This document shows, piece after piece, positions 2,354 to 60,352 of a stretch of 64,000 bases of DNA. Every line of letters starts with the position of its first letter. Positions within the stretch are counted from its first letter, which is position 1. The translations under genes and the position numbers were made by a program. Source of the DNA: a virus (Duplodnaviria > Caudoviricetes). The stretch spans positions 160,001-224,000 of the IMG/VR virus record IMGVR_UViG_3300027740_000003, one strand, 5' to 3'. The notes beneath the pieces were generated by a model. The model had not been told where the DNA came from, searched no databases, and saw only the letters and a program-made list of their open reading frames with translations.

Positions 2354-2605
2354 CTACTCTATTATGTTTTTGATTATATACTCGGCACAGGACAATTTGT
2401 CCAATTCATAGTTCTTATTAATTATGAATAATGAATGGTAAAATCCACAGGAACCGTCTCTAAAAATGTGAAAATAAGTTCTACATATTGAACATTTATA
2501 TTTCGAGCAATAAGTATCTGACAATTTACTATAATTGTTTTCTATAAAATGAAACTCATGATCTTTTTTATATTTAGTTGGTATTGAATACCAAGGAGCT
2601 TCCAT
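2354..2605 (-). CDS. IKDIIE-tail family, His/CxxC/Cys zinc-finger class
   Basis: Start MEAPW at 2605 (TAATG overlap); KDHEF...CSIC...LSCAEYIIKNIIE-stop. Confidence 0.8.
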   Translation of the reverse strand: MEAPWYSIPTKYKKDHEFHFIENNYSKLSDTYCSKYKCSICRTYFHIFRDGSCGFYHSLFIINKNYELDKLSCAEYIIKNIIE

Positions 2606-2727
2606 TATTCTATTATGCTTTTTAAACATTTAAAATTATATCCATTAACAGTAGGAATAAAATCATGATCTTTTTTAATATCAGGTGGTATTTTCGCAAT
2701 TAGCGCTGGCCATGTATTTTTTAACAT
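2605..2727 (-). CDS. IKDIIE-tail family, 40-aa internally deleted member (not in ORF track)
   Basis: MLKNTWPALIAKIPPDIKKDHDFIPTVNGYNFKCLKSIIE-stop; coupled upstream by TGATG and downstream by TAATG. Confidence 0.7.
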   Translation of the reverse strand: MLKNTWPALIAKIPPDIKKDHDFIPTVNGYNFKCLKSIIE

Positions 2728-2978
2728 CACTCTATTATGTTTTTTATTATTATTTCATCGCAAGAAAGTGTTTTACCATTTATTATTGAATAATAAATAT
2801 AATTATGCTGCGGATATATATGGCATATTAATCCACATTTTAAACATCTATATTTCGACAGAAACCCTTGTTTGTTTTGTCCTTTATATCCAAAATATAT
2901 ATCAACATTCTTTTCAAATACATAATTATGATCTTTAATTTGATCATCTGGAATTTTGTGAAACGCTTCCTCTTTCAT
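2727..2978 (-). CDS. IKDIIE-tail family, zinc-finger class
   Basis: KIPDDQIKDHNY...CLKC...LSCDEIIIKNIIE-stop. Confidence 0.8.
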   Translation of the reverse strand: MKEEAFHKIPDDQIKDHNYVFEKNVDIYFGYKGQNKQGFLSKYRCLKCGLICHIYPQHNYIYYSIINGKTLSCDEIIIKNIIE

Positions 2979-3262
2979 TCTATTATATCTTTTATTATTA
3001 TTTCACTACAAGTAAGCGTTTGTAATTCTTCTGATAAATATAGTCCATTTTTTTGACTAAAATCTAATCCATCAGAAAATTGATGATGAAATTTTCCAAA
3101 TATAATTTTGCATTCATCGGAATAAATTCTTAATATAATTTTACATTTAGAGCAAATATACCTCGAATAAAATAATTTATTTGTAGTTAGGTATACGTTC
3201 GAAACAAATGTATAATCATGATCTTTTTTAATTTCTTCCGGAATTTTAAATGCGGGGGTCAT
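2975..3262 (-). CDS. IKDIIE-tail family, zinc-finger class
   Basis: Likely start MTPAF at 3262; KIPEEIKKDHDY...CSKC...LTCSEIIIKDIIE-stop. Confidence 0.8.
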   Translation of the reverse strand: MTPAFKIPEEIKKDHDYTFVSNVYLTTNKLFYSRYICSKCKIILRIYSDECKIIFGKFHHQFSDGLDFSQKNGLYLSEELQTLTCSEIIIKDIIE

Positions 3263-3593
3263 ATATACCAAGCTTCCCCCAATATAACTCAGCCACACGA
3301 TATGTCAACCCCGGCGGTCCAAATTTGTTGTTCTCAATCGCTGCCATTCCATTGTTAACATAAATAACTACATCCGCAAATATTCTGTTATTTAATTCCG
3401 TAAAAGGTCGCATCACCATCACTCTTTCACTATGGTTCCTTACCCATGTAGGATATCCAGGATTACTTGCTACATATCCATCAAATGCATACCCGTCCAT
3501 TAGTTGGGTTATAAATAATTGTTTTCTCAACGTATCCCGAACCTGGTCAGGCACATTGTTGTTCATAAACACAATGGCACCAGGTAATGTCAT
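3246..3593 (-). CDS. Hypothetical protein
   Basis: 115-aa ORF, start coupled to the upstream stop (TAATG), normal composition. Confidence 0.7.
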   Translation of the reverse strand: MTLPGAIVFMNNNVPDQVRDTLRKQLFITQLMDGYAFDGYVASNPGYPTWVRNHSERVMVMRPFTELNNRIFADVVIYVNNGMAAIENNKFGPPGLTYRVAELYWGKLGIYDPRI

Positions 3594-4051
3594 TAAGAGC
3601 TCCCAATGTTTACATCGAATCCTTCAGAAAGATCATTTACATCCTCTACTTCTTCTTTCTTTGTTTTCTTTTCATATCGGCAAAGGTCATTAGTATCAGC
3701 ATTATAAGAATATCTTTTCCCATCCTTGATATAAGCAACATCGTCTTCGTCTGTTCCAATATTAACTTCGTCAGCTCCAGAGAAATCCATGTTCCTAAGA
3801 ATTTCATGGGCTTTCTTCATCTCTGCTCTGGTTAATGCTTCCCCTTCCTTATGCTCTTCAATAAAAGTTTGAAGTTTGTCTAATTGGCTCTGAGCATCTT
3901 TAAGCGATGTGGATAAAGAAGAATACTGTTTCTTGAGTTTATCAAGAAATTTCTCCACAGACTTTCTATTGTTTTTTCCCTTGAGCTTTTCAGTCTTTTC
4001 TGTTTTTGCAGCAAGCTTCTCTAAAAATCTTCTTCTAACCAATTTATTCAT
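3593..4051 (-). CDS. Hypothetical coiled-coil/acidic protein
   Basis: 152-aa charged ORF with helical heptad character. Confidence 0.7.
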   Translation of the reverse strand: MNKLVRRRFLEKLAAKTEKTEKLKGKNNRKSVEKFLDKLKKQYSSLSTSLKDAQSQLDKLQTFIEEHKEGEALTRAEMKKAHEILRNMDFSGADEVNIGTDEDDVAYIKDGKRYSYNADTNDLCRYEKKTKKEEVEDVNDLSEGFDVNIGSS

Positions 4052-4084
4052 CGATGCATCCTTTGGATAAGATATTCCAATATT

Positions 4085-4537
4085 ATGTCAGAATATAACC
4101 TGCCTGATTATGGCACAAACATACATGAATATATAAGAGATAAAATCCAAACTGCTATGCAAAAAATCATCGGCGAACCAATGAACAACCAGGCCTTGTC
4201 AGTATTAGAATATAATTGCAAAGAAATAATCAAAAGTTTACCTTTTACAGTTATTGATAGTGAGATAATAGTTAAACAAGACGAATTCGATACGACCAAA
4301 ATAAACTTTACATTTCCATTTATTTCAGAAATACTTGGATATATTTTATTTGATCCGAAAAATGACAATCATTATTGGGATTATTTGTCTGATACTAATG
4401 TTTATTTAAATTCAGGACATTATACTTCTTTCAAATGCAGAAAATGTGGATTAGAAATGATTATAAATAACGGATGGAAGCTTGCCAAACAGAATCTGAC
4501 TTGCGAAGAAATGGTAATAAAAGATATAATTGAATGA
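4085..4537 (+). CDS. IKDIIE-tail family, zinc-finger class with extra N-terminal domain
   Basis: DNHYW...CRKC...LTCEEMVIKDIIE-stop; ATGA overlap with the next gene. Confidence 0.8.
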   Translation: MSEYNLPDYGTNIHEYIRDKIQTAMQKIIGEPMNNQALSVLEYNCKEIIKSLPFTVIDSEIIVKQDEFDTTKINFTFPFISEILGYILFDPKNDNHYWDYLSDTNVYLNSGHYTSFKCRKCGLEMIINNGWKLAKQNLTCEEMVIKDIIE

Positions 4538-5157
4538 CCGCAACATCTTTAAGCAAACTACGAAGCCTTCCTTATCACGAAAGGATAAAATTTATCTTCC
4601 TTCAAAATAATTGGTTTGAAGAAACTTTGTATTTATTAAAAGATTATCCAAATTGGGACCACGATGAACTAGAAAAGAAATTGGCTATCGAAATAACATC
4701 ACATGAATGTGTTAATTTATTTAATGTTTGTGCTTTGTTAAAACACAGGGGTATAAATTTTGACAGAATGTTTTCTTACATTCTACAACACATTCCTATA
4801 TATCATCTTTCAGATTCTCTCTACGAACCCACCGTTATAATAGAGTGTATTGTTAAATCTGAGAAAATAAATTCTCTAAATGCATTTATTCGCTTTCTTT
4901 CTGAAAAAGAAAATGATGAAAGTTATTTTAATAATTTATTTTGTTATAATTCTATAGTAAATAACATCGATCATTTAATACATCAAAATAAAGAAAAATT
5001 TATTGATTTTAATACTATTATAGATGTGTGTTTGAAAAATTTAAATAAAGACCGCCGTGCCGCACACATTTTGTCCACATTATTAAAATTGCTGAAAAAC
5101 AAAGATTTAATTCAGAAAATAAAAGATAATTTGTTGATTTATGATATTATGACGTAA
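4534..5157 (+). CDS. Helical hypothetical protein with divergent tail
   Basis: Ends KIKDNLLIYDIMT-stop, alignable to the D(N/Q)LxIKDIIE tail. Confidence 0.7.
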   Translation: MTATSLSKLRSLPYHERIKFIFLQNNWFEETLYLLKDYPNWDHDELEKKLAIEITSHECVNLFNVCALLKHRGINFDRMFSYILQHIPIYHLSDSLYEPTVIIECIVKSEKINSLNAFIRFLSEKENDESYFNNLFCYNSIVNNIDHLIHQNKEKFIDFNTIIDVCLKNLNKDRRAAHILSTLLKLLKNKDLIQKIKDNLLIYDIMT

Positions 5158-6370: not shown

Positions 6371-7599
6371 ACAACATCTTTCACAAAAAATTCATGCAAC
6401 TCGTGGTATACATATTTTATTAAACCTTTTTCTGGCCACAAAATTTCTAAATCACTTAATCTTTCTCCACCATTTCCACGTTCCTCTTTTATTGCTTTTT
6501 TCAATAAACCAACGTTTCCATTTTTATCACAAATTTTCATGTCCATAACCAATCTCTCCATTGGATAATTTAATAATGGAATAGAGGCATCCCTAACTGC
6601 CCAACCAAAACCAGGTTTTACTGCACCAGATATTTCCTTTGAACCAACGATTCCTCCAATGAATTCCATAGGATACTGTTTATCATAATAATTCCATATA
6701 AATGGAACTGTAGATATTCCTTTGGGGAATTCGTTAATTGTTAAACCTCCGCCGAAAGACTTAACATTATCAAAACATACATATTTATTTTGATAATATT
6801 CGTTATTTGTATCTATCAAATATGGGTAAAATTTAATAACATGACCATTGATAAATGGGCCTCCGCTCCCGCCACCTTCTGAATAAAAATTCATCCAAAA
6901 GTCTGTATCAACATTGCCTTTGGCACTGTCAACAATCTTCTCTAAAACCGGATCTAGTTTTATAGTCCACCAATCAAGATTATATTGTGCCAATTGTTTT
7001 GTTTTATCTCTAATTAGTTCCCAGTCTTCTACTGTTCCTTCCAGCGTGATAGAAGGAATTCCACAGAGGGTAGTACAAGAATAATTAAAATATTTGCTCA
7101 TTGCGTCCATAAAAACAATTTCACTACTTACTCTTTCTAATATTCCAGTTGTGCTGAAATTTCCCACTATTAAATCTTTTTGTGGACCAATTTCTTTGCC
7201 TATTTTTTCTGAGAATTCATCGAAACAACCTTCCCAATGATTATTGCCACCTTTTACAAAACTGTCTCTTCTTACATCTATTGTTTTCTTTCCATCGAAA
7301 TTAACAAATTTGCTTCGTAATTTTTCTGCATTTTCAGTAATATGAGCAGCCATCCCACGTTCTATTGTTAGCCAAATAGAATCAGGATCAAGAATTAAAT
7401 GACGATGCTCTGCAAATGAAAGCTGAACAACAGATACCAAACCTGATCCAGTTCCGGAAACAAATTCTCCTTCTGAGCATTGTTCTAAATCACCCCCAAC
7501 CAATTGTTTTATTTGTATGTTAGTTTTTGATTTTCGGGAAGGATCGGTGTTGGTAGAAAAATTCTTTTTAGTTAGTGCTACGTCAAATGTTGCTGTCAT
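6367..7599 (-). CDS. DUF4419-like protein
   Basis: H..L.L.PD.IW, FSTT, DAMSKYFNY...CGIPSITLEGTVEDW and GGSGG..INGH motifs recalled for this family. Confidence 0.75.
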   Translation of the reverse strand: MTATFDVALTKKNFSTNTDPSRKSKTNIQIKQLVGGDLEQCSEGEFVSGTGSGLVSVVQLSFAEHRHLILDPDSIWLTIERGMAAHITENAEKLRSKFVNFDGKKTIDVRRDSFVKGGNNHWEGCFDEFSEKIGKEIGPQKDLIVGNFSTTGILERVSSEIVFMDAMSKYFNYSCTTLCGIPSITLEGTVEDWELIRDKTKQLAQYNLDWWTIKLDPVLEKIVDSAKGNVDTDFWMNFYSEGGGSGGPFINGHVIKFYPYLIDTNNEYYQNKYVCFDNVKSFGGGLTINEFPKGISTVPFIWNYYDKQYPMEFIGGIVGSKEISGAVKPGFGWAVRDASIPLLNYPMERLVMDMKICDKNGNVGLLKKAIKEERGNGGERLSDLEILWPEKGLIKYVYHELHEFFVKDVV

Positions 7600-7643
7600 T
7601 GTATTATATCCCTAATAGTTAGTTAATTTTTTCTTGATTGGAA

Positions 7644-7832
7644 TCAACCATTTTTATACCCATCCTTCGCCCAACCACTTCCTTTTAAATGAAATGGTGG
7701 GGCTCCTGATATTAATCTTTTAGCAGATTCTTTTCCACATTTTGGGCATATTTTAATGACAGGATCTGTAATCTTTTGATCTTCTTTCCATTCGTGTTTG
7801 CAATATTCACAGATGTAATCGTATTCTATCAT
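7644..7832 (-). CDS. FmdB-family zinc-ribbon protein
   Basis: YDYICEYCKHEW...CPKCG...RLIS...F.LKGSGWAKDGY. Confidence 0.85.
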   Translation of the reverse strand: MIEYDYICEYCKHEWKEDQKITDPVIKICPKCGKESAKRLISGAPPFHLKGSGWAKDGYKNG

Positions 7833-8752
7833 TTGAAAAACTCCATAGCATCAGCATATTTGAATCCACATCTAGAAGCAAAGGTTTTATCAGACGTCAT
7901 GTCTCCAACCATAATGCATTCTTTAGGATTTAGTTTATATTTCTCTACAAACTCTATCCCTATTCCAGGCATAGGTTTCCTCTTCCATGATATAATCGGA
8001 GGAACTTTAGATGTATCAAATTGATACTCTATATCTAACCCAATCAATTTATTAGTATGTTCAAAACAAGCAGTGGCAGCTTCTATTGTTAAATCTCCTT
8101 TTGCTACACCGCTTTGATTAGATGCTCCTAATAATTTGTATCCTTTTTCCAGGTATGATTTTAAAACCTCTGTTCTTCTTGGCAATAATTTTATTTGATC
8201 TGTGCTTGTTGGGAACATACCGTTTCCATTAACAATTTCTCTTAATGTTCCGTCATAGTCCAATATTAATGCTTTATTAACATATTCTGATTCCCATTTC
8301 CTAGTAAAGTTATTCTTAATTATTTCTGAAAATCCCTCGTTTATATTTGGTTTTTCAAATTCTTTGTTGGCTTTGAATAATACTGCCGGTGGAAATGTGT
8401 TTGGATCTTTTTCCTTTTTTAACTCTTCGGGAGTTAATACTTTGCCAAATTTAGAACACATTCTCCTACATGCATTAACTTGACAATCTTCTATACTGGT
8501 AGTTTGCCAGATACATTTAATTTCAACATTATATTTCTCAGCCAGATCAATAAAAGGTTTTCTATCTGAAACTTTAGTAAACAAATTATCTATAATAACA
8601 TCTTTTGATGAAGATATTAGAACTTCTAGTTTAGGCAGAAGATCAACAACTTTTCCGCCTACAAGATCTCTGTTAAGTCTTTCGTAGGTTGGATATTGGT
8701 TAGTTATTGTTGTTTTTCCTGAAGCTGGCAAACCACAAACAAGTAAAATCAT
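7829..8752 (-). CDS. Bifunctional polynucleotide kinase (AAA_33) / HAD phosphatase, Pnkp-like
   Basis: N-terminal GLPASGKT P-loop; C-terminal DYDGT, RKP and MVGD..SD HAD motifs. Confidence 0.85.
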   Translation of the reverse strand: MILLVCGLPASGKTTITNQYPTYERLNRDLVGGKVVDLLPKLEVLISSSKDVIIDNLFTKVSDRKPFIDLAEKYNVEIKCIWQTTSIEDCQVNACRRMCSKFGKVLTPEELKKEKDPNTFPPAVLFKANKEFEKPNINEGFSEIIKNNFTRKWESEYVNKALILDYDGTLREIVNGNGMFPTSTDQIKLLPRRTEVLKSYLEKGYKLLGASNQSGVAKGDLTIEAATACFEHTNKLIGLDIEYQFDTSKVPPIISWKRKPMPGIGIEFVEKYKLNPKECIMVGDMTSDKTFASRCGFKYADAMEFFK

Positions 8753-9039
8753 AGTATTAAATCCTTAATCATTACTTCATCACAACTTAGTAGATCGGTT
8801 GGTAAAATTGACTTTTTATCAAATATTAGCGAAGTTCCTGTCATAAAACATTTTTTGCATTTCCAGGACGCTTTATCGTAGCTATATTTTCCTCCAAAAT
8901 ATCTTTCCCATTCATGATCTAATATTTTAAATGGTTTTAACATTTTATTCCCATAACAATCACCAAATGTATAAGCTATTATTTCAGGATAAACAGCGCT
9001 TCGATAAATATATCTTTTTATTTTAACAATATTAACCAA
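8749..9039 (-). CDS. IKDIIE-tail family, zinc-finger class
   Basis: LDHEW...CKKC...LSCDEVMIKDLIL-stop. Confidence 0.75.
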   Translation of the reverse strand: MVNIVKIKRYIYRSAVYPEIIAYTFGDCYGNKMLKPFKILDHEWERYFGGKYSYDKASWKCKKCFMTGTSLIFDKKSILPTDLLSCDEVMIKDLIL

Positions 9040-9103
9040 TTTATATCCGGTTCTTTTTAGACCAAAATTAGTAATATATGAAAACTTCTTCTTCCTAACT
9101 GTT

Positions 9104-9412
9104 TTACCAGGTTTGATTAAATGAATTTGATTGTTCCATTTTTTTTATATTTTCTGGCAATAAATTCCATTCATATTTTTCATTATCAGTTAATTCTGAT
9201 TCTTTTATATGTTCTTTAAAATTGGTTAAAATCCTGTCATAAATTCCATCAATTTTATATTCTATAATTCTTTGGGCAAATTTTACTTTACTTAGGATAT
9301 AAATTAAATCATTGTAAAACTGATCAATTGTAGAGAATTCATCATTATACACGGGCAAATATTCTGGATCCACATATTCGTACTTATCATCAAAATAAAA
9401 AGATGAACTCAT
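9104..9412 (-). CDS. Hypothetical acidic protein
   Basis: 102-aa ORF coupled by ATGA to the upstream tail gene. Confidence 0.65.
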   Translation of the reverse strand: MSSSFYFDDKYEYVDPEYLPVYNDEFSTIDQFYNDLIYILSKVKFAQRIIEYKIDGIYDRILTNFKEHIKESELTDNEKYEWNLLPENIKKMEQSNSFNQTW

Positions 9413-9750
9413 TGGATAATATCCTTAATCATTACTTCATCAGCGGTCAATAATAACAACTCCGTTGATCCTTTAGAATTACCCCTGTATTTTGTTTTTA
9501 AATTTTTCTTATCTACATTTATATACATTACCGGGCTGTTCTCTGACATTTTTTGAGCTTCTAAACCGGTTTTGTTGCATCTAAATGTTCTGGGCCATGT
9601 CAATTGTTTTTGAGATCCGTCTTCTTCAAACTCTATCATTGTAATATCGAACCAGTCAAATGTTTTTGCACACTCTATAGCTTTTTCATAATCTTTATTT
9701 CTAATTGTTGGTTCAAATTTTTGTGATTTTGTTATTTGGAAAAATGCCAT
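9409..9750 (-). CDS. IKDIIE-tail family, degenerate zinc-finger class
   Basis: TFRCNKTG...LTADEVMIKDIIQ-stop; SD-like AAGGA upstream. Confidence 0.75.
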   Translation of the reverse strand: MAFFQITKSQKFEPTIRNKDYEKAIECAKTFDWFDITMIEFEEDGSQKQLTWPRTFRCNKTGLEAQKMSENSPVMYINVDKKNLKTKYRGNSKGSTELLLLTADEVMIKDIIQ

Positions 9751-11604: not shown

Positions 11605-11688
11605 TATAATTGGCATACGTGGAGTAAGACAAAATTGATAAGTTCCTTCGTAAGATTTCATCCTATTGCCAAGATCACTGTTTTCCAT
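11605..11688 (-). pseudogene. Orphan 5' fragment of a second thg1 allele
   Basis: MENSDLGNRMKSYEGTYQFCLTPRMPII is 14/28 identical to the N-terminus of 10034..10786, then similarity ends. Confidence 0.8.
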
Positions 11689-11978
11689 TATTCTATTATA
11701 TCCTTTATCATTAGTTCATCTTTGGTTATCAACACAGAGTTTTCTTTTATTTTATCTAAAACTTCGGGAAATTTATTATTGGACACACTAGCTATTATTT
11801 TGCTTGAACTGGTTGTTATTTTTCGTTTTGTTCTCTTGTTTTTTGGATATAAAATTTTAATTATATCATTTTTAACAAAAATAAACCCCCATATACAATC
11901 TTTGTATTGCAAATTACCAATTGTAAATGACCGTTTGGCTAAATAAAATTCTTCTCTCTCAATTTTGACAATATTCAT
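11688..11978 (-). CDS. IKDIIE-tail family, Cys-less member
   Basis: Likely start MNIVK at 11978 (ATGA overlap); ends LITKDELMIKDIIE-stop. Confidence 0.75.
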   Translation of the reverse strand: MNIVKIEREEFYLAKRSFTIGNLQYKDCIWGFIFVKNDIIKILYPKNKRTKRKITTSSSKIIASVSNNKFPEVLDKIKENSVLITKDELMIKDIIE

Positions 11979-12730
11979 TCTATTATATCTTTTATCATTA
12001 AATTGTCTATTATTTCTTCGGCAAATTCTTTCCAATCTGGACATAATAATATTATGTTTATATTATATCCAGATTGTTCTATTGCAGTTTTTTGAACTTC
12101 TTTAGGAGGGTTCTTTATAAATTGAATAGAATATGCATCTTGTTTAACTGCTTCTAATTTTATTTCTTTAGAAGGATTTTTTATAAATTGAATAGAATAT
12201 GCATTTTGTTTAATCGCTACTAATTGTACTTCTTTAGAAGGATTCTTTATAAATTGAATAGAATATGCATTTTCTTTAACAGCTGCTAGTTTTATTTCTT
12301 TAGAAGGGTTATTTATATATTGAATAGAATTTCCATTTTGTTTAACTGCTTCTAATTGTACTTCTTTAGAAGGGTTCTTTATAAACCTAATACGAAATCC
12401 GTCTTGTTTAACAGTCTCTAATTTTGTATTTTTTGTGGGTTTATTTATAAATTGAATATAACTTCCGTCTCTTTTAACCACTACCAGTTGTACTTTTTCT
12501 GTAGGATTTTCTATATACTTAATTGAAATTGGGTCTAGTTTAACAGCTTTTAATTGTATTTCTTCTGAAGGATTTTTTATATACCTAATTGAATATGAAT
12601 CTTGGTTAATAGTTTCTAACTGTACTTCCCTAGAAGGATTTTTTATATATTTAATGTAATCACTGTCAAAATCAATAAGTTTTCCTAAATGAGATGATAA
12701 TAAATCCTCAACTTTTTTAGCATGCGACAT
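11975..12730 (-). CDS. 22-aa repeat (DUF4116-like) solenoid protein with IKDIIE tail
   Basis: About 9 NPSxExQLxAVKQxxxSIxxIK units; ends IIDNLMIKDIIE-stop. Confidence 0.85.
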   Translation of the reverse strand: MSHAKKVEDLLSSHLGKLIDFDSDYIKYIKNPSREVQLETINQDSYSIRYIKNPSEEIQLKAVKLDPISIKYIENPTEKVQLVVVKRDGSYIQFINKPTKNTKLETVKQDGFRIRFIKNPSKEVQLEAVKQNGNSIQYINNPSKEIKLAAVKENAYSIQFIKNPSKEVQLVAIKQNAYSIQFIKNPSKEIKLEAVKQDAYSIQFIKNPPKEVQKTAIEQSGYNINIILLCPDWKEFAEEIIDNLMIKDIIE

Positions 12731-14767: not shown

Positions 14768-15293
14768 CCTTTATATTAGTTGCTTTAATATGCTGGTGAT
14801 ATTTAGCAACAATTTTTTTCTGATCCATTGTTAAAGCATACCAAAATGGATGCTTGGCAGGATCTTCTGGATTGGTCAATATGCCTTTATATTTTTCCTG
14901 ATGTGTAGTAAGATTATATGCCCACTCTTGTTCTCTTTGTTCATCAAGCATATTTACATTAGATAGTTTATGTTCATGTCCGCTGATTTCTGAATATATT
15001 TCATTCACTCGCCCATTAAACATATTTCCAAATGGCAAAATATCAGCATAAAGTTGAAACCTTAACCAAGGTCTAGTTATTTCCAGATCAATTAAATTTT
15101 GACTGCCAACAACAAGCAGGTTTTTATCCTCTATTTCAATTATATCATCTTCATCATCTTCAAAATAATAAACTTCAGCGGTTAATCCGGTTTTATCACA
15201 TAATAGTTTCAAACCATCGCATGTGGCCGCGAATCCATTTGTTCCAAATGCTTTATTCTGTTCTATAAGCCATTCAACAAGTTTATTCATCAT
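14736..15293 (-). CDS. Hypothetical protein
   Basis: 185-aa ORF, ATGA-coupled. Confidence 0.7.
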   Translation of the reverse strand: MMNKLVEWLIEQNKAFGTNGFAATCDGLKLLCDKTGLTAEVYYFEDDEDDIIEIEDKNLLVVGSQNLIDLEITRPWLRFQLYADILPFGNMFNGRVNEIYSEISGHEHKLSNVNMLDEQREQEWAYNLTTHQEKYKGILTNPEDPAKHPFWYALTMDQKKIVAKYHQHIKATNIKVVPGIPRFKW

Positions 15294-16140
15294 TCTATTA
15301 TGTCCCTTATTATTACATTATTATATATTGTTTCTAACGTTTTTGTATCTAACCTGGATAGATTTATAGTCCCAATAACATTTAAATTATATTTACTTGC
15401 AACAACGGCTTGTTGTTGTACTTCTTTTGAAGGGTTTTTTATAAATTTAATAGAAGACGGGTTTTGTTTTACAGCTGCTAGTTGAATTTCTTTTGAAGGG
15501 CTCTTTATACTTACAATAGATAGACCGAATTGTTTAACAGCTGCTAATTGGACTTCTTTAGATGGATTTTTTATATATTGAAGTGCATATCCATTTTGTT
15601 TAACAGCTAGTAATTTCATTTTTTCTGAAGGATTACGTATGTCTTCAATACAAAGTGAACATTGTTTAATAGCTGCTAGTTTTATTTTTTCGGAAGGTTT
15701 TTTTATATATTGAATAGAAAAACCGTTTTGTTTAACAGCCTCCAATTGAAGTTCTTTAGAAGGATTATGTATAAATTGAATAGAATGCCCGTTTTCTTCA
15801 ATCGCTGCTAATTTAACTTCTTTTGAGGGATTTTTTATATATTTAATAGAACATCCGTTTTGTTTAACAGCTACTAGTTTTATTTTTTCGGAAGGATTTT
15901 TATATAACATATAGATCCTCCGTTTTGTTTAACTGCTTCTAATTTTAATTCTTCTGAGGGGTTCTTTATAAACTTAATAGAATATCCGTTTTGTTTAACA
16001 GCTGCTAATTGCATTTCTTCAGTAGGATTATTAATATTTCGAATATTATGTAAATCTTGTTTAACAAGATTTAATCTTTTAGAATATAAAAAATTATCTA
16101 ATTTAGAGATAATGTCCGATTTAACAAGTTCATTTGTCAT
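15290..16140 (-). pseudogene. Frameshifted 22-aa repeat protein with IRDIIE tail (track ORFs 15880..16140 plus 15290..15910)
   Basis: The repeat register continues across a 5-T run at 15897-15901 where sister repeats have 6 T; adding one base fuses the two ORFs. Confidence 0.75.
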
Positions 16141-16658
16141 TCTATTATGTCTTTTATTATTACGTTATTATATATTGTTTCTAGATTTTCTTTGCTCAAT
16201 TTTGACAAATCGACAAATACAATAACTTTTGGATCAAATTTACTAGCAATAATAGCTTCCATAACAATTTCTTCGGTTGCCCATCCTTTTTCATAATACA
16301 TATCCAAATTAAATGGATGAAGTTTAATTGCCTCCAATTTCATTTCTTCACTAGGACCAACCGGATCTTTAATCCAATATATTGCATTATAGGCCCTTTT
16401 AATTGCTTCTAATTGAAGCCATTTTGGAGGATTCATTACACTATGAATAGAACAAGGCTCTTGTTTAACTGCTTCTAACATAACCTCGTTTGAAGGATTT
16501 TGTATCCACTGTAGGGAATTGCCCCAAACTTTAACAGCTTCCAATTTCATTTCCTCAGATGGATTTTTTATTTTTGAGAAATAAAGGCCAGGATTATTTT
16601 TAATTAGCTCCAATTTTGCATTGTACAACATTTCGTCTATTTTATCTGCAATGTCCAT
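16137..16658 (-). CDS. 22-aa repeat (DUF4116-like) protein with IKDIIE tail
   Basis: NPSEEMKLEAVK repeats; ends ETIYNNVIIKDIIE-stop. Confidence 0.85.
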   Translation of the reverse strand: MDIADKIDEMLYNAKLELIKNNPGLYFSKIKNPSEEMKLEAVKVWGNSLQWIQNPSNEVMLEAVKQEPCSIHSVMNPPKWLQLEAIKRAYNAIYWIKDPVGPSEEMKLEAIKLHPFNLDMYYEKGWATEEIVMEAIIASKFDPKVIVFVDLSKLSKENLETIYNNVIIKDIIE

Positions 16659-19228: not shown

Positions 19229-19745
19229 TTCTAAAAACTCCTTTTCTTATCCATCCAAAATCATGAACAATTTCCTCAATCTCGACAACTGACCCATCAT
19301 TTTGTCCAATTATCTTTCTAGGACATTTCTCAAATGCTTTTAACATCCTAACACAGGTTTCTAAAGGAACATTGTGTACATTTGATTTAAAACTATCCTC
19401 GGCAGTCATTCCTGTTATTGAATGACAAATTACTTTATATCCAGCTTCTTGCCCTAATAAAGCATATACTTTAAGGTCTTTTAATTTAATATTCGTATTA
19501 TCTATTATGATTAATTCTTTTTCTACTTCAATTGCTTTAATACAATTATATTTACAAGATCCGTGAGCTTTGCTTAACAAAGCAATATCGAATTTATAAT
19601 TCTCTGGAATTTGTTCTTTACCAAAGTACCAATAATGATCTGCACTACATACTGTAGCTTCTTGACCATATTGTTTTTCTAACTCTTTTATTATTGTGGT
19701 TTTTCCTGCTCCTGGAAGACCACGTAGTATTATTAGTGTTTTCAT
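19188..19745 (-). CDS. AAA_33/NEDD4-BP2-like P-loop kinase
   Basis: LIILRGLPGAGKTT, CSADHY, IIDNTN and NVHNVP motifs. Confidence 0.85.
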   Translation of the reverse strand: MKTLIILRGLPGAGKTTIIKELEKQYGQEATVCSADHYWYFGKEQIPENYKFDIALLSKAHGSCKYNCIKAIEVEKELIIIDNTNIKLKDLKVYALLGQEAGYKVICHSITGMTAEDSFKSNVHNVPLETCVRMLKAFEKCPRKIIGQNDGSVVEIEEIVHDFGWIRKGVFRNGHFGTKNSKKNR

Positions 19746-20194
19746 TCGATTATGTCTTTAATCATCAATTGATCTTTTATATATGGCCAAATGTCTTTAG
19801 GATATTGCGTTTCTAAATAACACGTTGATGTTCCGGAAATTCTTCTTAAGAATTTTGCAGATATGAGCGTCTTTCTATATTCTAGAGGAAGATTTTTGTT
19901 TTGTATTAATATTGAATCTGATACTATATATTCTGATACTATATATGTGGACATCGCGGCATTTACTAATAAATTTTCAGTTGCTTGTTTAGATTTTACT
20001 TTTCTAAGCAACCTGAGGGCTGTTGATTTATTCATTTTTTTTAAACATAGTTTTTCTAATTGAGATTCGGACAAATCATTTCTATGAGAAAGCCATTGAA
20101 TGGCTATTGTATCACCAAGATCAATTACTACATCAAAAGCTTTAGATATATCTTCTAGTGTGAAATTTGTTGATTGTTGTTTCTTTTTAATCAT
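19742..20194 (-). CDS. Helical hypothetical protein with IKDIIE tail
   Basis: Ends YIKDQLMIKDIIE-stop. Confidence 0.75.
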   Translation of the reverse strand: MIKKKQQSTNFTLEDISKAFDVVIDLGDTIAIQWLSHRNDLSESQLEKLCLKKMNKSTALRLLRKVKSKQATENLLVNAAMSTYIVSEYIVSDSILIQNKNLPLEYRKTLISAKFLRRISGTSTCYLETQYPKDIWPYIKDQLMIKDIIE

Positions 20195-20391
20195 TCGATT
20201 ATATCCTTAATCATCATTTCATCACATGATAATATTTCAACATAGAGATTGTAAAATAATGTCGGTTTTTTCATATGAATAAATAAGTCGCCAAAAGCTT
20301 CGAATCCACATTTTTTGCATTTAAATCTATAGGTAGAAATTTTCTCAAAATCATGGGAGTTTAATTTTTCACCAAGATTATTTATACTCAT
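20191..20391 (-). CDS. IKDIIE-tail family, zinc-finger class
   Basis: Likely start MSINN at 20391; NSHDF...CKKC...LSCDEMMIKDIIE-stop. Confidence 0.8.
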   Translation of the reverse strand: MSINNLGEKLNSHDFEKISTYRFKCKKCGFEAFGDLFIHMKKPTLFYNLYVEILSCDEMMIKDIIE

Positions 20392-20624
20392 TCTATTATA
20401 TTCTTTATAATAAATTCGTCGCAAGAAAGAATATTATAAATGTCTCTTAAATAAGATAATCCGTAGCTGTCTAATCTATTAAACTTCATTCGAATTTTAT
20501 ATCCACATTTTTTACACTTATAAACAACGCCATTATATCCAAAATTATCTAAAGGAAAAAACTCATGTGTTTTAAGTTTTTCATCGGCAATTTTAAACAG
20601 ATCTGGAAAGCTATTTATGTCCAT
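20388..20624 (-). CDS. IKDIIE-tail family, zinc-finger class
   Basis: KTHEF...CKKC...LSCDEFIIKNIIE-stop. Confidence 0.8.
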   Translation of the reverse strand: MDINSFPDLFKIADEKLKTHEFFPLDNFGYNGVVYKCKKCGYKIRMKFNRLDSYGLSYLRDIYNILSCDEFIIKNIIE

Positions 20625-22540: not shown

Positions 22541-22792
22541 TCAAAATTTGCGAATATGTTTTATTACGTTCGTGCCGTACTCATAAACCTTTGCAGACAG
22601 CCTTTTCATCTTTGCTAGTTGTAGCTTCGGAGGAGCTGCCGGAACAGCTTTTACACTCTCCAGTGCCGCCTTGTCATATTCTCCCTCATCTACCATTATT
22701 CGATATTTAACTATGGCTGGAATAAGACACTCTACCTCAACTGTATAAAATTTCTTGTCTATTGACTTTTCCTGTTTTTCTTTTTTTTGCAT
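22541..22792 (-). CDS. Hypothetical protein
   Basis: Likely start MQKKE at 22792, which avoids overlap with the divergent M23 gene. Confidence 0.6.
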   Translation of the reverse strand: MQKKEKQEKSIDKKFYTVEVECLIPAIVKYRIMVDEGEYDKAALESVKAVPAAPPKLQLAKMKRLSAKVYEYGTNVIKHIRKF

Positions 22793-22809
22793 AATCTGAT
22801 ATATAACTG

Positions 22810-24953: not shown

Positions 24954-24954
24954 A

Positions 24955-25359
24955 TTAGGTTCCTTTATACTTCTTTCTCATTTTTACACCAAAAACACTA
25001 ACTGTATCGGTTTCTTCTTTTTCGGTGCCCCAACAATCTGATTTATATATTTTTAAATTGATTCCCTGATCAAATCCTTTCATAAATTTCCAAATCCAAT
25101 AAGTGTCTTCTCCAAGAATTTCACAGCAATCTTTTAACCATCCTGAATAAGGAAATGAATTCGAAATATCTTTAATAGATTCTGCTGTTTTTATTTCAGG
25201 TTTGGCAAATCCTTTTCTAAGCATAACAGAGCCAATTGCACTAACTCCAATTAGTTTACCATTAACATAATCATATGCACAACTGGTTGCTATTATTCTA
25301 TATCCGTTTTCTTTTGCCCAAGAAAGAGATTCGTCAATGATAGTCTCTGCCTTCGACAT
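24955..25359 (-). CDS. Hypothetical protein
   Basis: 134-aa ORF. Confidence 0.7.
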   Translation of the reverse strand: MSKAETIIDESLSWAKENGYRIIATSCAYDYVNGKLIGVSAIGSVMLRKGFAKPEIKTAESIKDISNSFPYSGWLKDCCEILGEDTYWIWKFMKGFDQGINLKIYKSDCWGTEKEETDTVSVFGVKMRKKYKGT

Positions 25360-27330: not shown

Positions 27331-27663
27331 CTAATAATAAACCTCGCCATCACAATTGTGTTTTGGTGCTTCAATATCATCTCTAGGAATTATAGTCTTC
27401 AAAACCAAAGATACAGCTTTTTCTAAAGTAGGAACGTTCACTACTTTCTTATCTTTATAATAAATAGAATTACTGCCATTGTCTTTTTCGAAGAAAACTT
27501 CATACCCAAAATCATTTTGCTCAATAATAAAGCCGTCTTTTATAAAATTAATTGAAGAGTATTTGTCTCTATATCCGCCACCATATATTAATTCACTCAA
27601 ATCACAATACCTACAAATTAATTTGGCATCCTGTAATGTTTTTACCGCCTCTTGTGGTGTCAT
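27331..27663 (-). CDS. Hypothetical protein
   Basis: 110-aa ORF, ATGA-coupled. Confidence 0.65.
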   Translation of the reverse strand: MTPQEAVKTLQDAKLICRYCDLSELIYGGGYRDKYSSINFIKDGFIIEQNDFGYEVFFEKDNGSNSIYYKDKKVVNVPTLEKAVSLVLKTIIPRDDIEAPKHNCDGEVYY

Positions 27664-28508
27664 TCTATGATATCCTTTATTATTAAATTATCTACTATTT
27701 CATCTGCAAATTCATTTCTATCAGAACATAAACATATTATGTCCATATCATATTTTGATTGTTCTATTGCAATTTTTTGTAATTCTTTAGAAGGATTCTT
27801 TATATAAGATATAGAATATGCATCTTGTTTAACTGCTGCTAATTGTACTTCTTCGGAAGGATTTTTTATATAAGATATAGAAACCCCTATATTTTTAACT
27901 GCTGCTAATTTAACTTCTTTTGAGGGATTCTTTATAAATTGAATAGAAAGCCCGTTTTCTTTAACGGCTGCTAATTTCATTTCTTTAGAAGGATTCTTTA
28001 TATATTGAATAGAGTTTCCGTTTTGTTTAACGGCTGCTAATTTCATTTCTTTAGAAGAATTCTTTATATATCGAATAGAAGTTCCAATTTGTTTAACCGC
28101 TGCTAACTGCATTTCTTTAGAAGAATTCTTTATATATCGAATAGAAGTTCCAATTTGTTTAACCGCTGCTAATTGTGCTTCTTCGGAAGGATTCTTTATA
28201 TATTGAATAGAAGTTCCAATTTGTTTAACCGCTGCTAATTGTGCTTCTTCGGAAGGATTTTTTATATAACAAATAGAATAGCTATTTTGTTTAACAGCTG
28301 CTAATTGCATTTCTTTAGTGGGGTTTTTTATATAACAAATAGAGGTTCCGTCTTGTTTAATAGCTACTAACTGCATTTCTTTAGTGGGTTTTTTTATATA
28401 TTTAAGATTGCTTCCAGCTAGTTTAACTGCCTTTAAAGCAAATTCCTCATCGTCATAATCAAATTTAAGATGTTTAATGCATAATTTATTTAATTTATCT
28501 ATTGACAT
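27660..28508 (-). CDS. 22-aa repeat (DUF4116-like) solenoid protein with IKDIIE tail
   Basis: About 10 repeat units; likely start MSIDK at 28508; ends IVDNLIIKDIIE-stop. Confidence 0.88.
   Translation of the reverse strand: MSIDKLNKLCIKHLKFDYDDEEFALKAVKLAGSNLKYIKKPTKEMQLVAIKQDGTSICYIKNPTKEMQLAAVKQNSYSICYIKNPSEEAQLAAVKQIGTSIQYIKNPSEEAQLAAVKQIGTSIRYIKNSSKEMQLAAVKQIGTSIRYIKNSSKEMKLAAVKQNGNSIQYIKNPSKEMKLAAVKENGLSIQFIKNPSKEVKLAAVKNIGVSISYIKNPSEEVQLAAVKQDAYSISYIKNPSKELQKIAIEQSKYDMDIICLCSDRNEFADEIVDNLIIKDIIE
28044..28259. repeat. Near-perfect 66-bp tandem repeat units
   Basis: 63 bp identical at 28044-28106 and 28110-28172; 55 bp identical at 28139-28193 and 28205-28259. Confidence 0.9.
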
Positions 28509-28518
28509 TTTTTTTCTT

Positions 28519-28863
28519 TTAATAGCAGTAGTTAGCCCGACACCGCTTGCCAAGATTAATTTCTTTTGTATTAGTTATACAAACAGTTTTTGCATTGCTA
28601 CATTCTAAAACTTTATTCGGATAACAAGCAAGTTCACAATTGGTTTGTTTATAAGACAAAGCCAATACCAAGAACACAAAAATAACTACAATCATAATAC
28701 CAATTATTCCAAACATATTTTCTTTTGATTGTCTGGCGTCTATTTCGTCAATGAGCCGATCGATTTCAGTATTAGAATTTTCTAATTTTAAAATTGATGC
28801 ACCAAAATTTACTATTACCTTTTCTAATTCTACAACTGTTTTCTCTAATTTTTCATCGGACAT
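28519..28863 (-). CDS. Single-pass membrane protein
   Basis: Coiled coil, hydrophobic MFGIIGIMIVVIFVFLVLAL, then a small Cys-rich domain. Confidence 0.7.
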   Translation of the reverse strand: MSDEKLEKTVVELEKVIVNFGASILKLENSNTEIDRLIDEIDARQSKENMFGIIGIMIVVIFVFLVLALSYKQTNCELACYPNKVLECSNAKTVCITNTKEINLGKRCRANYCY

Positions 28864-58295: not shown

Positions 58296-58298
58296 AAT

Positions 58299-59666
58299 TT
58301 ACTTGCGGAAGTCTAATTTGCCACCCTGTCCAAAATTCTGAGAAAATTTGCTTTGGTTCTTCTTAATCTTCTCCCTAACTTCATCAGCTTTAGAAACAAC
58401 TTTGTCTTTACCAGTGTCCAGTGTTAGATTCATACTTCTAGCCTGTACTCTTTCTTTGGTCTTTACCTGATCAGATTCTACATCCTTTCTAAGCTGTACC
58501 ACTCGGCCATCGGGAAGACCCAACCCAGAGAACATTGAATAAATCTTAACAATATCCTCATCAATCTCATCATCTACATATGTGCCATAAAAAACAGCCT
58601 CGTGTCCGGGACAATTCTCTTTGATTAATTCTCTAGCATATTCTACAGCGCCTCTTGGAATCTGCTCCCATGCTTTTGAATTAGCAACTATTATTAAACC
58701 AGCGTATTTAGTCTGGGCCAGATTGAAACCAGAAGCTAATAGGCCATTCTCATGGTTCTCAATAACTGCCTGAGCAATTAGAGTATTATCATTTGCATAA
58801 TTGGTAATTGTCATTTCTCCATATACACAAAGCCCTTCCCCATCGGTAAGAATCTTTGCCCACTCCATAGAGTCTAATGGTTTATCTAAAGATGACATTA
58901 CAGAATATGAGTTAAACGCATCAATGGTTTTTACTATAGCTTGGTTGCCTACAGTAAAAAATGACATAACTCCCACATCTGTATAAATCGCCTCTAATTT
59001 CGCATTGTCTACAACAATCAAATTAGAGATAGCTTTGTCTTGCACTAGTTTGGCCAGGCTTGATAATGTCTGCAATGCGTTATTTTTTGTTTTAACATCT
59101 TCCGTGCTCATTGGAAGCACAGACACAACCACAATAGGCTTTCCTGTTGATCCCAAGATATCTATAAAAACATCATGAGAGCCTGCTCCGGAACCACCAC
59201 CAAGAGAGAAACATAATAGGAATACGTCTGTATCAGATAGTTTGTCTGAGATAAGGTTAACAATACCATCCCTATGAGCTTCTGCTGCCTGATGGCCTAT
59301 ATCAAGGTCTTTTGCAGCGCCACCAATTCCGTATTCTAATAGATACTTGTTAGCTTCTGGCAACTGAATTTGTTCTAGGTCTTGTGGGGCGGTATTAAAA
59401 GCAATTGCCGAATATCCTAATTGGGCCCATTGTGAGGCTATTTTTGCTCCGGCATGTCCTGAACCAACTATTCCTAGATTTAAACTTCGCTTTCTTTTTT
59501 CTACAATTCTTGCAGGCATATTATCTTTCTCCTCCTCCTGCTTATTATGCTTAGATAATGCTAGTTTTGCCTTTAATTCTGCCAATTTATTATCAACAAC
59601 TTCTGCTGAAATATCATCTTCTATTTGTTCTTTTTCTGTTTCTACTGTATTGTTTATTACCGACAT
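58299..59666 (-). CDS. Tubulin/FtsZ-family GTPase (PhuZ/TubZ-like)
   Basis: G.G.AG..IA, FNT, GGAAKD, SLGGGSGAGS signature, VVDN and LD..E motifs; SD GGAG. Confidence 0.88.
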   Translation of the reverse strand: MSVINNTVETEKEQIEDDISAEVVDNKLAELKAKLALSKHNKQEEEKDNMPARIVEKRKRSLNLGIVGSGHAGAKIASQWAQLGYSAIAFNTAPQDLEQIQLPEANKYLLEYGIGGAAKDLDIGHQAAEAHRDGIVNLISDKLSDTDVFLLCFSLGGGSGAGSHDVFIDILGSTGKPIVVVSVLPMSTEDVKTKNNALQTLSSLAKLVQDKAISNLIVVDNAKLEAIYTDVGVMSFFTVGNQAIVKTIDAFNSYSVMSSLDKPLDSMEWAKILTDGEGLCVYGEMTITNYANDNTLIAQAVIENHENGLLASGFNLAQTKYAGLIIVANSKAWEQIPRGAVEYARELIKENCPGHEAVFYGTYVDDEIDEDIVKIYSMFSGLGLPDGRVVQLRKDVESDQVKTKERVQARSMNLTLDTGKDKVVSKADEVREKIKKNQSKFSQNFGQGGKLDFRK

Positions 59667-59684
59667 AGTTCTCCAAAAATAGTT

Positions 59685-59945
59685 CTATTTTATTGCATCA
59701 ATTATTACATCCAGAGCTTTAAAAAACCTTTCATCTTCTTCATATATAATATCTTTCTGCATAATTTCGTTAAGAGAATAAGGGCTTTCTAGTCCTTTAG
59801 CGTATCCGCCTAAAACTTCAATAATTTCACCATCTTCCATTTCTAATACTAGAATATTATAATTTTGTCTATAAGCTTTACATTTGCTTCCGGCAGGATA
59901 ATTATAATGTTTCTTTTTTGTTATGTATTCTCCAAGAAATATCAT
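59685..59945 (-). CDS. Hypothetical protein
   Basis: 86-aa ORF, ATGA-coupled. Confidence 0.6.
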   Translation of the reverse strand: MIFLGEYITKKKHYNYPAGSKCKAYRQNYNILVLEMEDGEIIEVLGGYAKGLESPYSLNEIMQKDIIYEEDERFFKALDVIIDAIK

Positions 59946-60352
59946 TGAATTATATCCTTGATTATTGCTTCGTCTTTGGTTAACAAATTTACTTTTGATA
60001 TTAATTTGCTAGGATCTTTTGGTATCCAGAACTGGTTTTCTAAAACACACAGGCCATAAATAACATTCTCAGGAACTAGTTCAGAAAAAACTAATTCTGA
60101 ACCAAAAACATACCAATTTGTAGAGCCTAAATTATTTCTTATCTTTTCCAAGTGTTTGAGATTTTTTCCTACAAACATCCTCCACCTACTATTAAATAAT
60201 ATTACTTTCATTATAATATTCCATTGCTCAATTGCAAATTTTAAATCGATTATAGTTTTAAACAAAGAATCTTCCGAATTAATATAACGATCTTCTATAA
60301 TGTTATCTATATGTGGTTTCAAACTATCAACAAATTCTTTTGTTATTTTCAT
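59942..60352 (-). CDS. IKDIIE-tail family, Cys-less member
   Basis: Ends NLLTKDEAIIKDIIQ-stop. Confidence 0.75.
   Translation of the reverse strand: MKITKEFVDSLKPHIDNIIEDRYINSEDSLFKTIIDLKFAIEQWNIIMKVILFNSRWRMFVGKNLKHLEKIRNNLGSTNWYVFGSELVFSELVPENVIYGLCVLENQFWIPKDPSKLISKVNLLTKDEAIIKDIIQ

Follow-up and report, generated by a model that had tools for sequence, protein, structure and literature searches.

Several described systems join unlike proteins to a common machine through a constant C-terminal element. Poxvirus ankyrin proteins with a PRANC/F-box-like C-terminus, like F-box, SOCS-box and BC-box proteins, couple a variable or repeat body to such an element, and the poxvirus family is expanded within one viral genome. 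In bacteria, the XB tail of SspB (bound by the ClpX N-domain), encapsulin cargo peptides, HslU/HbYX tails and the ssrA tag are short C-terminal peptides that couple unrelated proteins to a machine. Here we describe a 13-residue tail, L-S/T-x-D-E-h-h-I-K-D-I-I-E-stop (h, hydrophobic; x, any residue), that ends many small proteins of an uncultured jumbo myophage from a soil metagenome. The phage, hereafter G000, is known from IMG/VR record IMGVR_UViG_3300027740_000003 (435,004 bp, rated complete), and the tail was noticed in a stretch of 64,000 nucleotides, the window (G000:C1:160001-224000), to which coordinates refer unless a genome is named. We propose, at about even chances, that the tail is a portable docking helix tying many small accessory proteins to one shared putative partner.

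The tail is confined to C-termini and recurs across the genome

To call tails, we built a position matrix on the last 13 residues and took a score above 10 bits as a tail. About 15% of G000 genes (110 of ~727) exceeded this threshold and none scored between 5 and 10 bits, giving a bimodal distribution, while no internal site in G000 reached more than 12 bits. With residues counted back from the stop, the G000 consensus is L(65%)-[TS]-x-D(66%)-E(56%)-h-[MI]-I(97%)-K(89%)-D(92%)-I(95%)-I(100%)-E(80%)-stop. A strict regular expression matched 85 C-termini and a single internal site in G000, and 93 open reading frames (ORFs) contain the strict pattern. Amino-acid composition predicts 0.009 C-terminal matches per 727 genes, and 200 shuffles yielded a mean of 0.01 and a maximum of one. 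The excess over a composition-matched null that the sequence-only reading anticipated is therefore real (110 of 727 against ~0.01 expected).

Tagged proteins are small, with a median of 96 aa and a maximum of 439 aa, reached by a DUF4116 repeat protein. Their genes are concentrated at 100–190 kb and 340–435 kb of G000, with hardly any in the structural and replication block at 200–340 kb. Within the window, 14 of 15 tails fall at 2.3–28.6 kb, and the remaining one (59942) lies amid replication genes. The sequence-only reading had listed 17 tail-bearing ORF ends; all 17 were found where it placed them, 15 of them as full tails (25–44 bits), whereas the ends at 2605 and 5157 are degenerate and score below zero. 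No further tails in the window had been missed.

As far as we found, the tail is undescribed so far. It matches no Pfam family, and searches of the literature for the motif strings, DUF4116 and DUF2201 with MoxR returned nothing relevant and no description of the tail, in keeping with the initial impression that it is not a described motif. Searches of the ESM Atlas, and of PDB sequences with the tail profile, found nothing significant, and a word-indexed protein search queried with the 40 C-terminal residues of one tagged protein returned the query alone. In 185,579 species genomes, a degenerate DNA pattern for M-I-K-D-I-I-E-stop gave five matches, none of which ends an ORF of at least 40 aa, and host mimicry was therefore not detected. 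A shorter degenerate DNA pattern retrieved from IMG/VR mainly out-of-frame chance matches, plus a few true tails.

Selection acts on the peptide, and its DNA also starts the next gene

Over the last seven codons, information content is 3-periodic, with ~2 bits at codon positions 1 and 2 and 0.5–1 bit at position 3. Leu-13 is encoded by CTT, TTA, TTG, CTA or CTC, the isoleucines by ATA, ATT or ATC, lysine by AAA or AAG and aspartate by GAT or GAC; codon counts throughout G000 thus confirm the synonymous variation first seen in the window. Because conservation is 3-periodic and the codons are scattered, selection acts on the peptide. A comparison between relatives points the same way: one protein of G000 and one of metagenomic neighborhood L150 are alike over their 21 C-terminal residues only, and their last 16 codon positions (stop included) show six synonymous differences and one nonsynonymous difference. 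The converse pattern, with nucleotides kept and peptide lost, had been named as the case that would speak against a protein signal, and it was not seen in this pair.

The same DNA is dual-coded, specifying both the peptide and the translation-initiation region of the next gene. The next start overlaps the stop (GA-ATG-A or TAATG) in 67 of 93 tagged genes compared to 130 of 642 untagged genes. In these overlapped tails, AAG-GA codons create an AAGGA resembling a Shine-Dalgarno (SD) sequence 9–12 nt before the next ATG, and AAG occurs in 62% of overlapped tails but 33% of free tails (Fisher p = 0.03). Conservation reaches 40 nt upstream of the next start, and no nucleotides are conserved after the stop, which is TGA in 50 cases, TAA in 32 and TAG in 3. 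The 26 non-overlapped tails have the same peptide, with downstream genes that carry their own SD in the spacer, and the coupling role is therefore secondary.

One tail on at least two folds

Once the last 14 residues are cut off, BLAST sorts the 93 strict-tail proteins into 55 unconnected clusters. Simple patterns divide the 110 tagged proteins into 16 HCCC zinc ribbons, 13 with CxxC..CxxC, 12 DUF4116-like repeat proteins and 69 others, seven of which lack any cysteine. We modeled two tagged proteins with AlphaFold2 (AF2), reading confidence from the predicted local distance difference test (pLDDT). The protein at 2727..2978 was modeled as a beta-rich zinc ribbon followed by a helix at residues 73–82 (pLDDT 86–92 in the body and 64–73 in the tail), and that at 11975..12730 as an all-alpha solenoid (pLDDT 96–98) with a terminal helix at 233–250 whose last 10 residues have a pLDDT of 67. 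One tail thus ends bodies of two or more distinct folds, a beta-rich ribbon and an all-alpha solenoid, and each model places it with less confidence than any other part. A fold search with the zinc-ribbon model against PDB and AFDB clusters returned nothing significant. The claim that the bodies are unrelated needs qualifying: in the window, the 15 tagged proteins include five of one zinc family and four with DUF4116 repeats, and across the genome the bodies form 55 clusters with at least two folds.

Members of the HCCC family, itself undescribed, share an invariant His, a CxxC pair and a Cys at -11 followed by hhI[KR]xIIE at the stop; H17, C45, C48 and C73 (numbering of 2727..2978) are invariant across 58 homologues. 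In the window, the family comprises the proteins ending at 2354, 2727, 2975, 20191 and 20388 and the C-terminus of 4085-4537. The DUF4116 assignment, which covers the bodies of four window proteins and excludes the tail, is seen at 11975..12730, where PF13475 scores 70.7 bits against a gathering cut-off of 24.9; G000 has 27 PF13475 repeat matches, including those in the window genes at 11975, 15290 and 27660. The tail is not general to the DUF4116 family, since the members in Salicola phage SCTP-2 and Agrobacterium phage Atu_ph07 have other ends and the relative G001 has about 95 tails and no DUF4116. A Pfam scan of four other tagged window proteins found no family, and the small number of tagged proteins that were scanned showed no enzyme domain. 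To the extent checked, the tail is absent from enzymes and structural proteins; the observation from the window that no enzyme carries it therefore extends across G000 within the same limits, that is, few proteins scanned and small sizes throughout.

The tail is a patchy trait of a phage clade

Relatives were found with the degenerate DNA pattern and follow-up searches. G001, complete at 458,729 bp with a GC content of 39.5%, has about 95 ORFs ending in [ST]-C-x-[DE]-h-I-I-[KR]-[ED]-I-I-[EK], with 74 of these tails on zinc-ribbon paralogues, mostly in tandem arrays. G002, a fragment of another relative, has nine tails, and G003, a complete 36.9-kb phage with terminal repeats, has two LMIKDIIE tails on DUF4116-like bodies. 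Among metagenomic neighborhoods of homologues of one core gene, the tail is present in L146, L150 (six tails in 12 kb, reading LMIKDIIE), L151, L153 (41 of 61 genes) and L154, and absent from the syntenic regions of L147, L148, L149 and L152. It is thus spread across the clade as a patchy trait. A zinc-ribbon profile run against 1.84 billion proteins matched 1,006 cluster representatives. The best 150 include 72 external proteins of 62–135 aa with C-11 in 96%; 68 of the 72 have a full-length tail ([LI][ST]C.[DE]hhI[KR]xII plus a final residue, E in 74%) and four are one residue short.

Tagged genes occupy variable slots whose flanking core genes lie next to each other in tail-less relatives, and none of these flanking genes ends in a tail. 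The bodies are rarely orthologous even in close relatives, while the tail is constant. In the slot upstream of the tubulin-like gene, for example, G002 carries three non-homologous tagged genes of its own, and the genes of G001 are untagged. The consensus differs by genome: on unrelated bodies G000 uses K-5 (89%), D-4 (92%) and M-7 (47%), compared to K/R at 39/33% and E/D at 39/32% in G001, where the final residue varies among E, K, T and V, and the external zinc family has E, N, D or S at -4. A genome-specific consensus on unrelated bodies, combined with mixed synonymous sites, argues for co-adaptation to a common partner and not for recent copying.

The small phage G003 bears on the nature of that partner. 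Its two tail-fibre-like genes (L013/L014, G003 22659-26782) are 64–67% identical over aligned segments to window positions 36837-38051 and 38790-41621; from these common fibre genes, G003 and G000 presumably infect the same host, and the similarity suggests a recent exchange of receptor-binding modules between huge and small phages. Beyond the fibres, the two have in common only a lipoprotein HExxH peptidase, a GH73-like lysin, a 232-aa protein among the lysis genes and a RuvC-like resolvase. That a tagged phage has so few genes in common with G000 points to a partner outside the huge-phage core, encoded more probably by the host or by a lineage-specific gene than by a core gene of the phage; a host protein is the simplest candidate.

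A proposed docking helix and its alternatives

Helix-capping rules of the Aurora and Rose type can be applied to the tail: L-13 and h-8 match a hydrophobic staple, S/T-12 and E-9 an S/T-x-x-E capping box, and the helix N-terminus is acidic. The sequence would further place E-9, K-5 and E-1 on an i/i+4 ladder and h-7, I-6, I-3 and I-2 on a hydrophobic face, a design expected of a short autonomous amphipathic helix. We therefore picture the tail as a self-contained amphipathic alpha-helix of 12–13 residues at the extreme C-terminus of small accessory proteins, through which different small bodies (the hyper-expanded zinc ribbon with its variable loops, the solenoids of DUF4116 repeats and several dozen orphans) would be coupled, by the same exposed helix, to a common partner. 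The tag would then be the constant region on a library of variable binders, and the partner might hand bound targets on to an effector, or might instead sort the tagged proteins or turn them over. The AAGGA and stop/start overlap in the tail's DNA would probably ease the shuffling of body-plus-tail cassettes.

Exposure of the helix, binding in trans and an adaptor logic are suggested by several observations. Recognition in trans fits the surface positions K-5, D-4 and E-1, which are uniform in G000 on unrelated bodies and different in G001, and it fits the drop in AF2 confidence over the tail in two folds. A docking helix also fits the strict terminal placement and the restriction to small accessory proteins. 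A bolder extension, which we consider doubtful, is that the clade runs a new tagging system in which more than 100 fast-evolving small binders per genome are wired by a constant C-terminal helix to a single effector or hub; this would be a phage counterpart of F-box/PRANC libraries, made of adaptors resembling proteolysis-targeting chimeras ('PROTAC-like'), or else a common import or sorting signal, with the tag DNA coupling the cassettes.

Several points weigh against a docking helix. No partner was found for the tail among the candidates checked, namely DUF4116, the MoxR/DUF2201 pair and the genes common to G003 and G000, so that the docking or sorting signal originally suggested holds up as portable, C-terminal and peptide-selected, and not in its partner. 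We infer exposure of the helix from pLDDT only. Nearly every tail of most relatives is the native C-terminus of the same very large zinc-ribbon family, and the tail's apparent portability could partly be the conserved end of a single superfamily. Synonymous codon use in the tail is not neutral compared to the bodies of the same genes: AAG accounts for 54% versus 10% and GAC at -10 for 53% versus 17%, ATA is enriched at all three Ile positions, free tails included, and CTT is enriched at Leu-13. This bias implies some nucleotide-level constraint alongside the peptide constraint, and the SD overlay accounts for the AAG bias alone; one may speculate that the excess of rare codons reflects selection to lower DNA identity among ~110 repeats. 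Finally, most tagged genes have a close downstream neighbor, and a role of the tail in translation in cis is not cleanly separable.

The candidate partners were set aside on the following grounds. DUF4116 is ruled out as a universal tail receptor by its absence from G001, and none of the genes common to G003 and G000 is plausible as a cytoplasmic hub. A link to the tubulin-like gene was rejected because the tagged genes that G000 and G002 have in the slot upstream of it are not homologous, and G001 has untagged genes there. A MoxR-type AAA+ ATPase gene and a gene for a DUF2201_N metallopeptidase/VWA protein (G000:C1:417643-418836 and 420921-422234; L145:3646-4836 and 6924-8234) are split by eight tagged genes in G000; the pair abuts in L147, L149 and L152, and a single untagged 89-aa gene lies between its members in L148. 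As this core pair is also present in tail-less relatives, its embedding among tagged genes looks like an insertion hot spot. The DUF2201 VWA protein has an invariant HExxH and a DxSxS metal-ion-dependent adhesion site (MIDAS) motif, and G001 has two MoxR/DUF2201 pairs (146780-148084, 152285-153622, 130696-133547). Complex prediction for the peptidase-VWA protein with a neighboring tagged protein, a single pair, gave a score of 0.00, which weighs neither for nor against an interaction.

The same helix might instead serve the tagged proteins themselves, packing on its own body or pairing with other tails to stabilize small proteins without any third-party partner. We regard such a structural or oligomerization element as unlikely. 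It would make sense of the stabilizers built into the helix (capping box and charge ladder), of a zinc-family helix that starts right at the fourth zinc ligand C-11, and of the DUF4116 protein in which the tail continues an 18-residue terminal helix; small phage proteins are, moreover, often oligomers. Packing on the protein's own body should not require the same hydrophobic and surface residues on a zinc ribbon, a solenoid and orphans, however, and pLDDT is lower over the tail in both models. Twelve residues are also short for autonomous bundling, and promiscuous hetero-pairing of ~110 proteins would seem harmful. Somewhat less probable again is a degron or timer that marks tagged proteins for an AAA+ or ClpP-type protease, a special form of docking with the tagged protein itself as substrate; the clade's ClpP-like protein together with a host unfoldase could then clear an accessory burst at a set time. 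C-terminal degrons, the ssrA type among them, are likewise strictly terminal, at least one tagged operon follows a sigma70-like site, and members of the clade share a conserved ClpP-like gene (G000 410663-411280, G001 160353-161009 and four relatives). That gene is kept in tail-less relatives, however, and no unfoldase partner was found; the acidic last residue is unlike LAA-type tags, and the tag encoded by the phage's own transfer-messenger RNA (tmRNA) is ANDNADLTAAAA.

Two further explanations place the function in the nucleic acid. If the tail were mainly a cis translation element, the junction would couple the next gene as RNA, or as a nascent peptide at termination, and the mature peptide would be a by-product. 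The excess of stop/start overlaps, the AAGGA at its set distance from the ATG and the AAG share, highest in overlapped tails and lowest in bodies, all favor coupling, and the conserved length is that of the upper ribosomal exit tunnel. We nevertheless think this improbable, as conservation is of the coding type up to 40 nt upstream of the start, non-overlapped tails keep an identical peptide ahead of genes with their own SD, nothing is conserved past stops that are both TGA and TAA, and the pattern is amphipathic and capped as in a folded helix; the varied last residue in G001 is also unlike known arrest peptides. Most improbable in our view is that the ~40-nt tail is a DNA cassette boundary, a recombination linker that moves gene-plus-tail cassettes among co-infecting phages and encodes a neutral peptide. 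DNA matches of 30–50 nt at 79–97% identity do occur between tails across G000, the slots between core genes hold tagged genes, and the same tail is found in an unrelated small phage of presumably the same host. Were it a DNA site, though, every position or some structure should be conserved, and here third codon positions vary and Leu codons are scattered; rare synonymous codons are in excess, which makes the copies less alike as DNA, and core genes at slot edges lack tail ends.

If the docking-helix proposal is right and one helix couples ~15% of a proteome to a single partner, that partner would be a central node of infection for an uncultured phage clade, and the tagged proteins would form a catalogue of its clients or adaptors, most of them otherwise unannotatable orphans. 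The tag offers a direct experimental handle on more than 100 proteins and on hundreds of related metagenomic clusters. The tail is also a clean case of dual coding, with a peptide tag and a translation-initiation region on the same DNA, and its spread as a protein motif over different folds within a virus is relevant to the assembly and exchange of accessory genes in phages.

Tagged genes of the window and their genomic setting

Most tagged genes in the window lie on the minus strand. The first, a zinc-ribbon gene of the HCCC family at 2354..2605, ends in KLSCAEYIIKNIIE (29.6 bits; tail codons and TAG stop at 2354-2395); its start was taken as the ATG overlapping the upstream TAA, and no downstream start overlaps its stop, with tRNA genes coming next. 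Four of these (Pro-UGG, Asp-GUC, Phe-GAA and Glu-CUC) lie on the minus strand at 988-2113, directly downstream. Upstream are two further minus-strand members of the family, one of 83 aa at 2727..2978 with the tail TLSCDEIIIKNIIE (2727-2768, 34.7 bits) and one at 2975..3298 with TLTCSEIIIKDIIE (2975-3016, 35.1 bits), whose true start is probably the ATG at 3262 and whose stop overlaps the next start (GAATGA). Between them and the first gene, a 41-aa minus-strand ORF at 2605..2730 that ends in ..FKCLKSIIE (-23.6 bits) is probably a truncated remnant of a zinc-family gene. Among the few plus-strand tagged genes is that at 4085..4537, encoding a 150-aa protein with a C-terminal zinc ribbon and the tail NLTCEEMVIKDIIE (4496-4537, 37.5 bits). 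It is followed on the plus strand by a 207-aa protein (4534..5157) with the degenerate tail IKDNLLIYDIMT (-4.7 bits), which is identical at 8 of 12 positions to the DUF4116-class tail IIDNLMIKDIIE.

The remaining tagged genes are all on the minus strand. A 96-aa protein at 8749..9039 has the variant tail LLSCDEVMIKDLIL (25.4 bits), and a 113-aa BLAST singleton at 9409..9750 ends in LLTADEVMIKDIIQ (35.4 bits), without Cys at position -11. Another 96-aa protein, at 11688..11978, carries LITKDELMIKDIIE (38.0 bits); its ATG overlaps the stop of the upstream tagged gene, and a word-indexed search found no relatives. That upstream gene (11975..12730) encodes a 251-aa DUF4116 repeat protein with the tail EFAEEIIDNLMIKDIIE (33.1 bits; PF13475 at 7e-20). 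DUF4116 repeats recur in the 206-aa protein at 15290..15910 (ETIYNNVIIRDIIE, 26.1 bits) and in a protein of up to 297 aa at 27660..28553 (EFADEIVDNLIIKDIIE, 31.2 bits), and the 173-aa protein at 16137..16658 (ETIYNNVIIKDIIE, 28.9 bits) is DUF4116-like. The last of these follows an ADP-ribosylglycohydrolase gene in the same operon. A 150-aa helical protein without a Pfam family at 19742..20194 ends in PYIKDQLMIKDIIE (33.6 bits), beside two HCCC zinc ribbons: one at 20191..20391, of 66 aa from the overlapping ATG, has the best score in the window (ILSCDEMMIKDIIE, 44.1 bits), and one of 78 aa at 20388..20624 ends in ILSCDEFIIKNIIE (33.6 bits). The outlying gene at 59942..60352, in the variable slot upstream of the tubulin-like gene, encodes a 136-aa protein with the tail LLTKDEAIIKDIIQ (35.1 bits).

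Two neighboring genes deserve mention. The tubulin/PhuZ-like protein at 58299-59666 (PHROG E = 1e-6) is 44% identical to its G002 copy, which is 45% identical to that of G001. The ADP-ribosylglycohydrolase-like gene at 16658-17683 (PHROG 5e-35) is first in an operon that holds three tagged genes and a 678-aa helicase, and it follows a TTGACA-N18-TAnnnT site with a GC-rich spacer. In a k-mer search for promoters, such sigma70-like sites (TTGACA-N15-19-TAnnnT) were the sole class found, with ten more elsewhere in G000; a single site of this class precedes a tagged operon, which is too little for timing tagged genes.

The window is AT-rich (GC 30–38%), and G000 is transcribed mostly from the minus strand. 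Its genes include helicases, a DnaB-like helicase, a ribonucleotide reductase, tail proteins and a weak PhuZ-like tubulin, alongside 21 tRNAs and a tmRNA. The reads behind it come from a soil metagenome, and a search of sequencing runs found soil and groundwater DNA runs only and no RNA run. No close cultured phage was found: against 50,697 phage records, neither a megablast of 20 kb nor a tblastn of the tubulin-like protein gave a match, and DnaB matched at no more than 24% identity.

Outside the window, G000 encodes its tmRNA at G000:C1:97812-98149 and a tRNA with a CUA anticodon, an amber suppressor, at 148687-148760; G001 has a tRNA with a UUA anticodon, an ochre suppressor, at 451588-451662. 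TAG ends 3 of 85 tagged genes and 86 of 727 genes overall in G000, and stop-codon recoding by stage is possible. A conserved core block at G000:C1:410663-411719, also found in L146-L152, comprises a DksA/TraR-type zinc-finger protein, the ClpP-like protease, DUF192 and an FtsK-like ATPase, to which some relatives (L147, L149, L152 and L154) add EF-Ts, a Thg1-like enzyme and ribosomal protein S21. At G000:C1:22256-22465 and 22844-22969, two ORFs agree in all of their last 20 residues (PKSFNLQSLKDELIIKDIIL), and each is followed after 74 nt by a 63-aa ORF; by sequence, a tagged cassette seems to have been duplicated locally and recently.

Comparison with described systems

Short C-terminal tags of bacteria are the nearest parallels in size. 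The end of the SspB XB tail, ..LRVVK-COOH, loosely resembles the h-[KR]-x-h-h-charged-COOH pattern of the tail described here; the sequences of these tethering and sorting tags are otherwise different, and most are extended and not capped helices. To our knowledge, none occurs on ~15% of a proteome. Unlike the ssrA tag, the tail is encoded in each gene, and the peptide specified by the phage tmRNA is unrelated. The tail consensus matches neither the beta-clamp motif QL[SD]LF nor the Gly/Ser-rich encapsulin core LxxGSL. Set beside ribosome-arrest peptides, for which a defined last residue and stop context and stalling at the stop would be expected, the tail shows no conservation after the stop, uses all three stop codons and varies in its last residue in G001.

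The zinc-family tails, which read [LI]-[ST]-C-x-[DE] with hydrophobic and acidic residues, fit by eye the LxCxE motif of retinoblastoma pocket ligands. Their Cys is, however, the invariant fourth zinc ligand, C-11 occurs in 15% of G000 tails and bacteria lack pocket proteins, and we take the likeness to be a coincidence. Closer kin of the zinc ribbons are cellular. The best 150 of the 1,006 cluster representatives include 40 long bacterial lipoproteins with 5–30 tandem DUF7128/RYYR-CCHC-type zinc modules, each module matched by the phage profile, and judged by this similarity they are the nearest cellular relatives of the phage family. These proteins match PF23447 and PF23674, for which the phage proteins fall below Pfam thresholds, and they are long and secreted as opposed to cytoplasmic and 70 aa. 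Three metagenomic bacterial proteins (P0042, P0044 and P0046) show the module as ..ATGH..C.ENG..YYxCxxCG..F.D..G..ELSxxEhhI.., whose end (..ELSxxEhhI) resembles the first half of the tail; the I-K-D-I-I-E end is missing, and the next module (..ATGH) follows directly.

At the level of gene organization, the promoter-early stem-loop (PeSL) cassettes of T4-type phages and the attC sites of integrons likewise combine small, fast-changing genes with a recurring short sequence that also serves the next gene. Those sequences are non-coding and conserved as DNA or RNA, whereas the tail is coding and conserved as a peptide. The sequence-only reading had compared the tagged proteins to poxvirus ankyrin proteins with F-box adaptors, a likeness that does not extend to sequence: the PRANC/F-box element is a folded Skp1-binding domain of ~40–50 residues, the tail has 13 residues and neither sequence nor Pfam similarity to it, bacteria have no ubiquitin system, and Skp1/cullin machinery is not expected in the host. 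As a functional analogy the comparison stands, by logic only, with the DUF4116 solenoid and its tail mirroring the ankyrin repeats and their PRANC domain.

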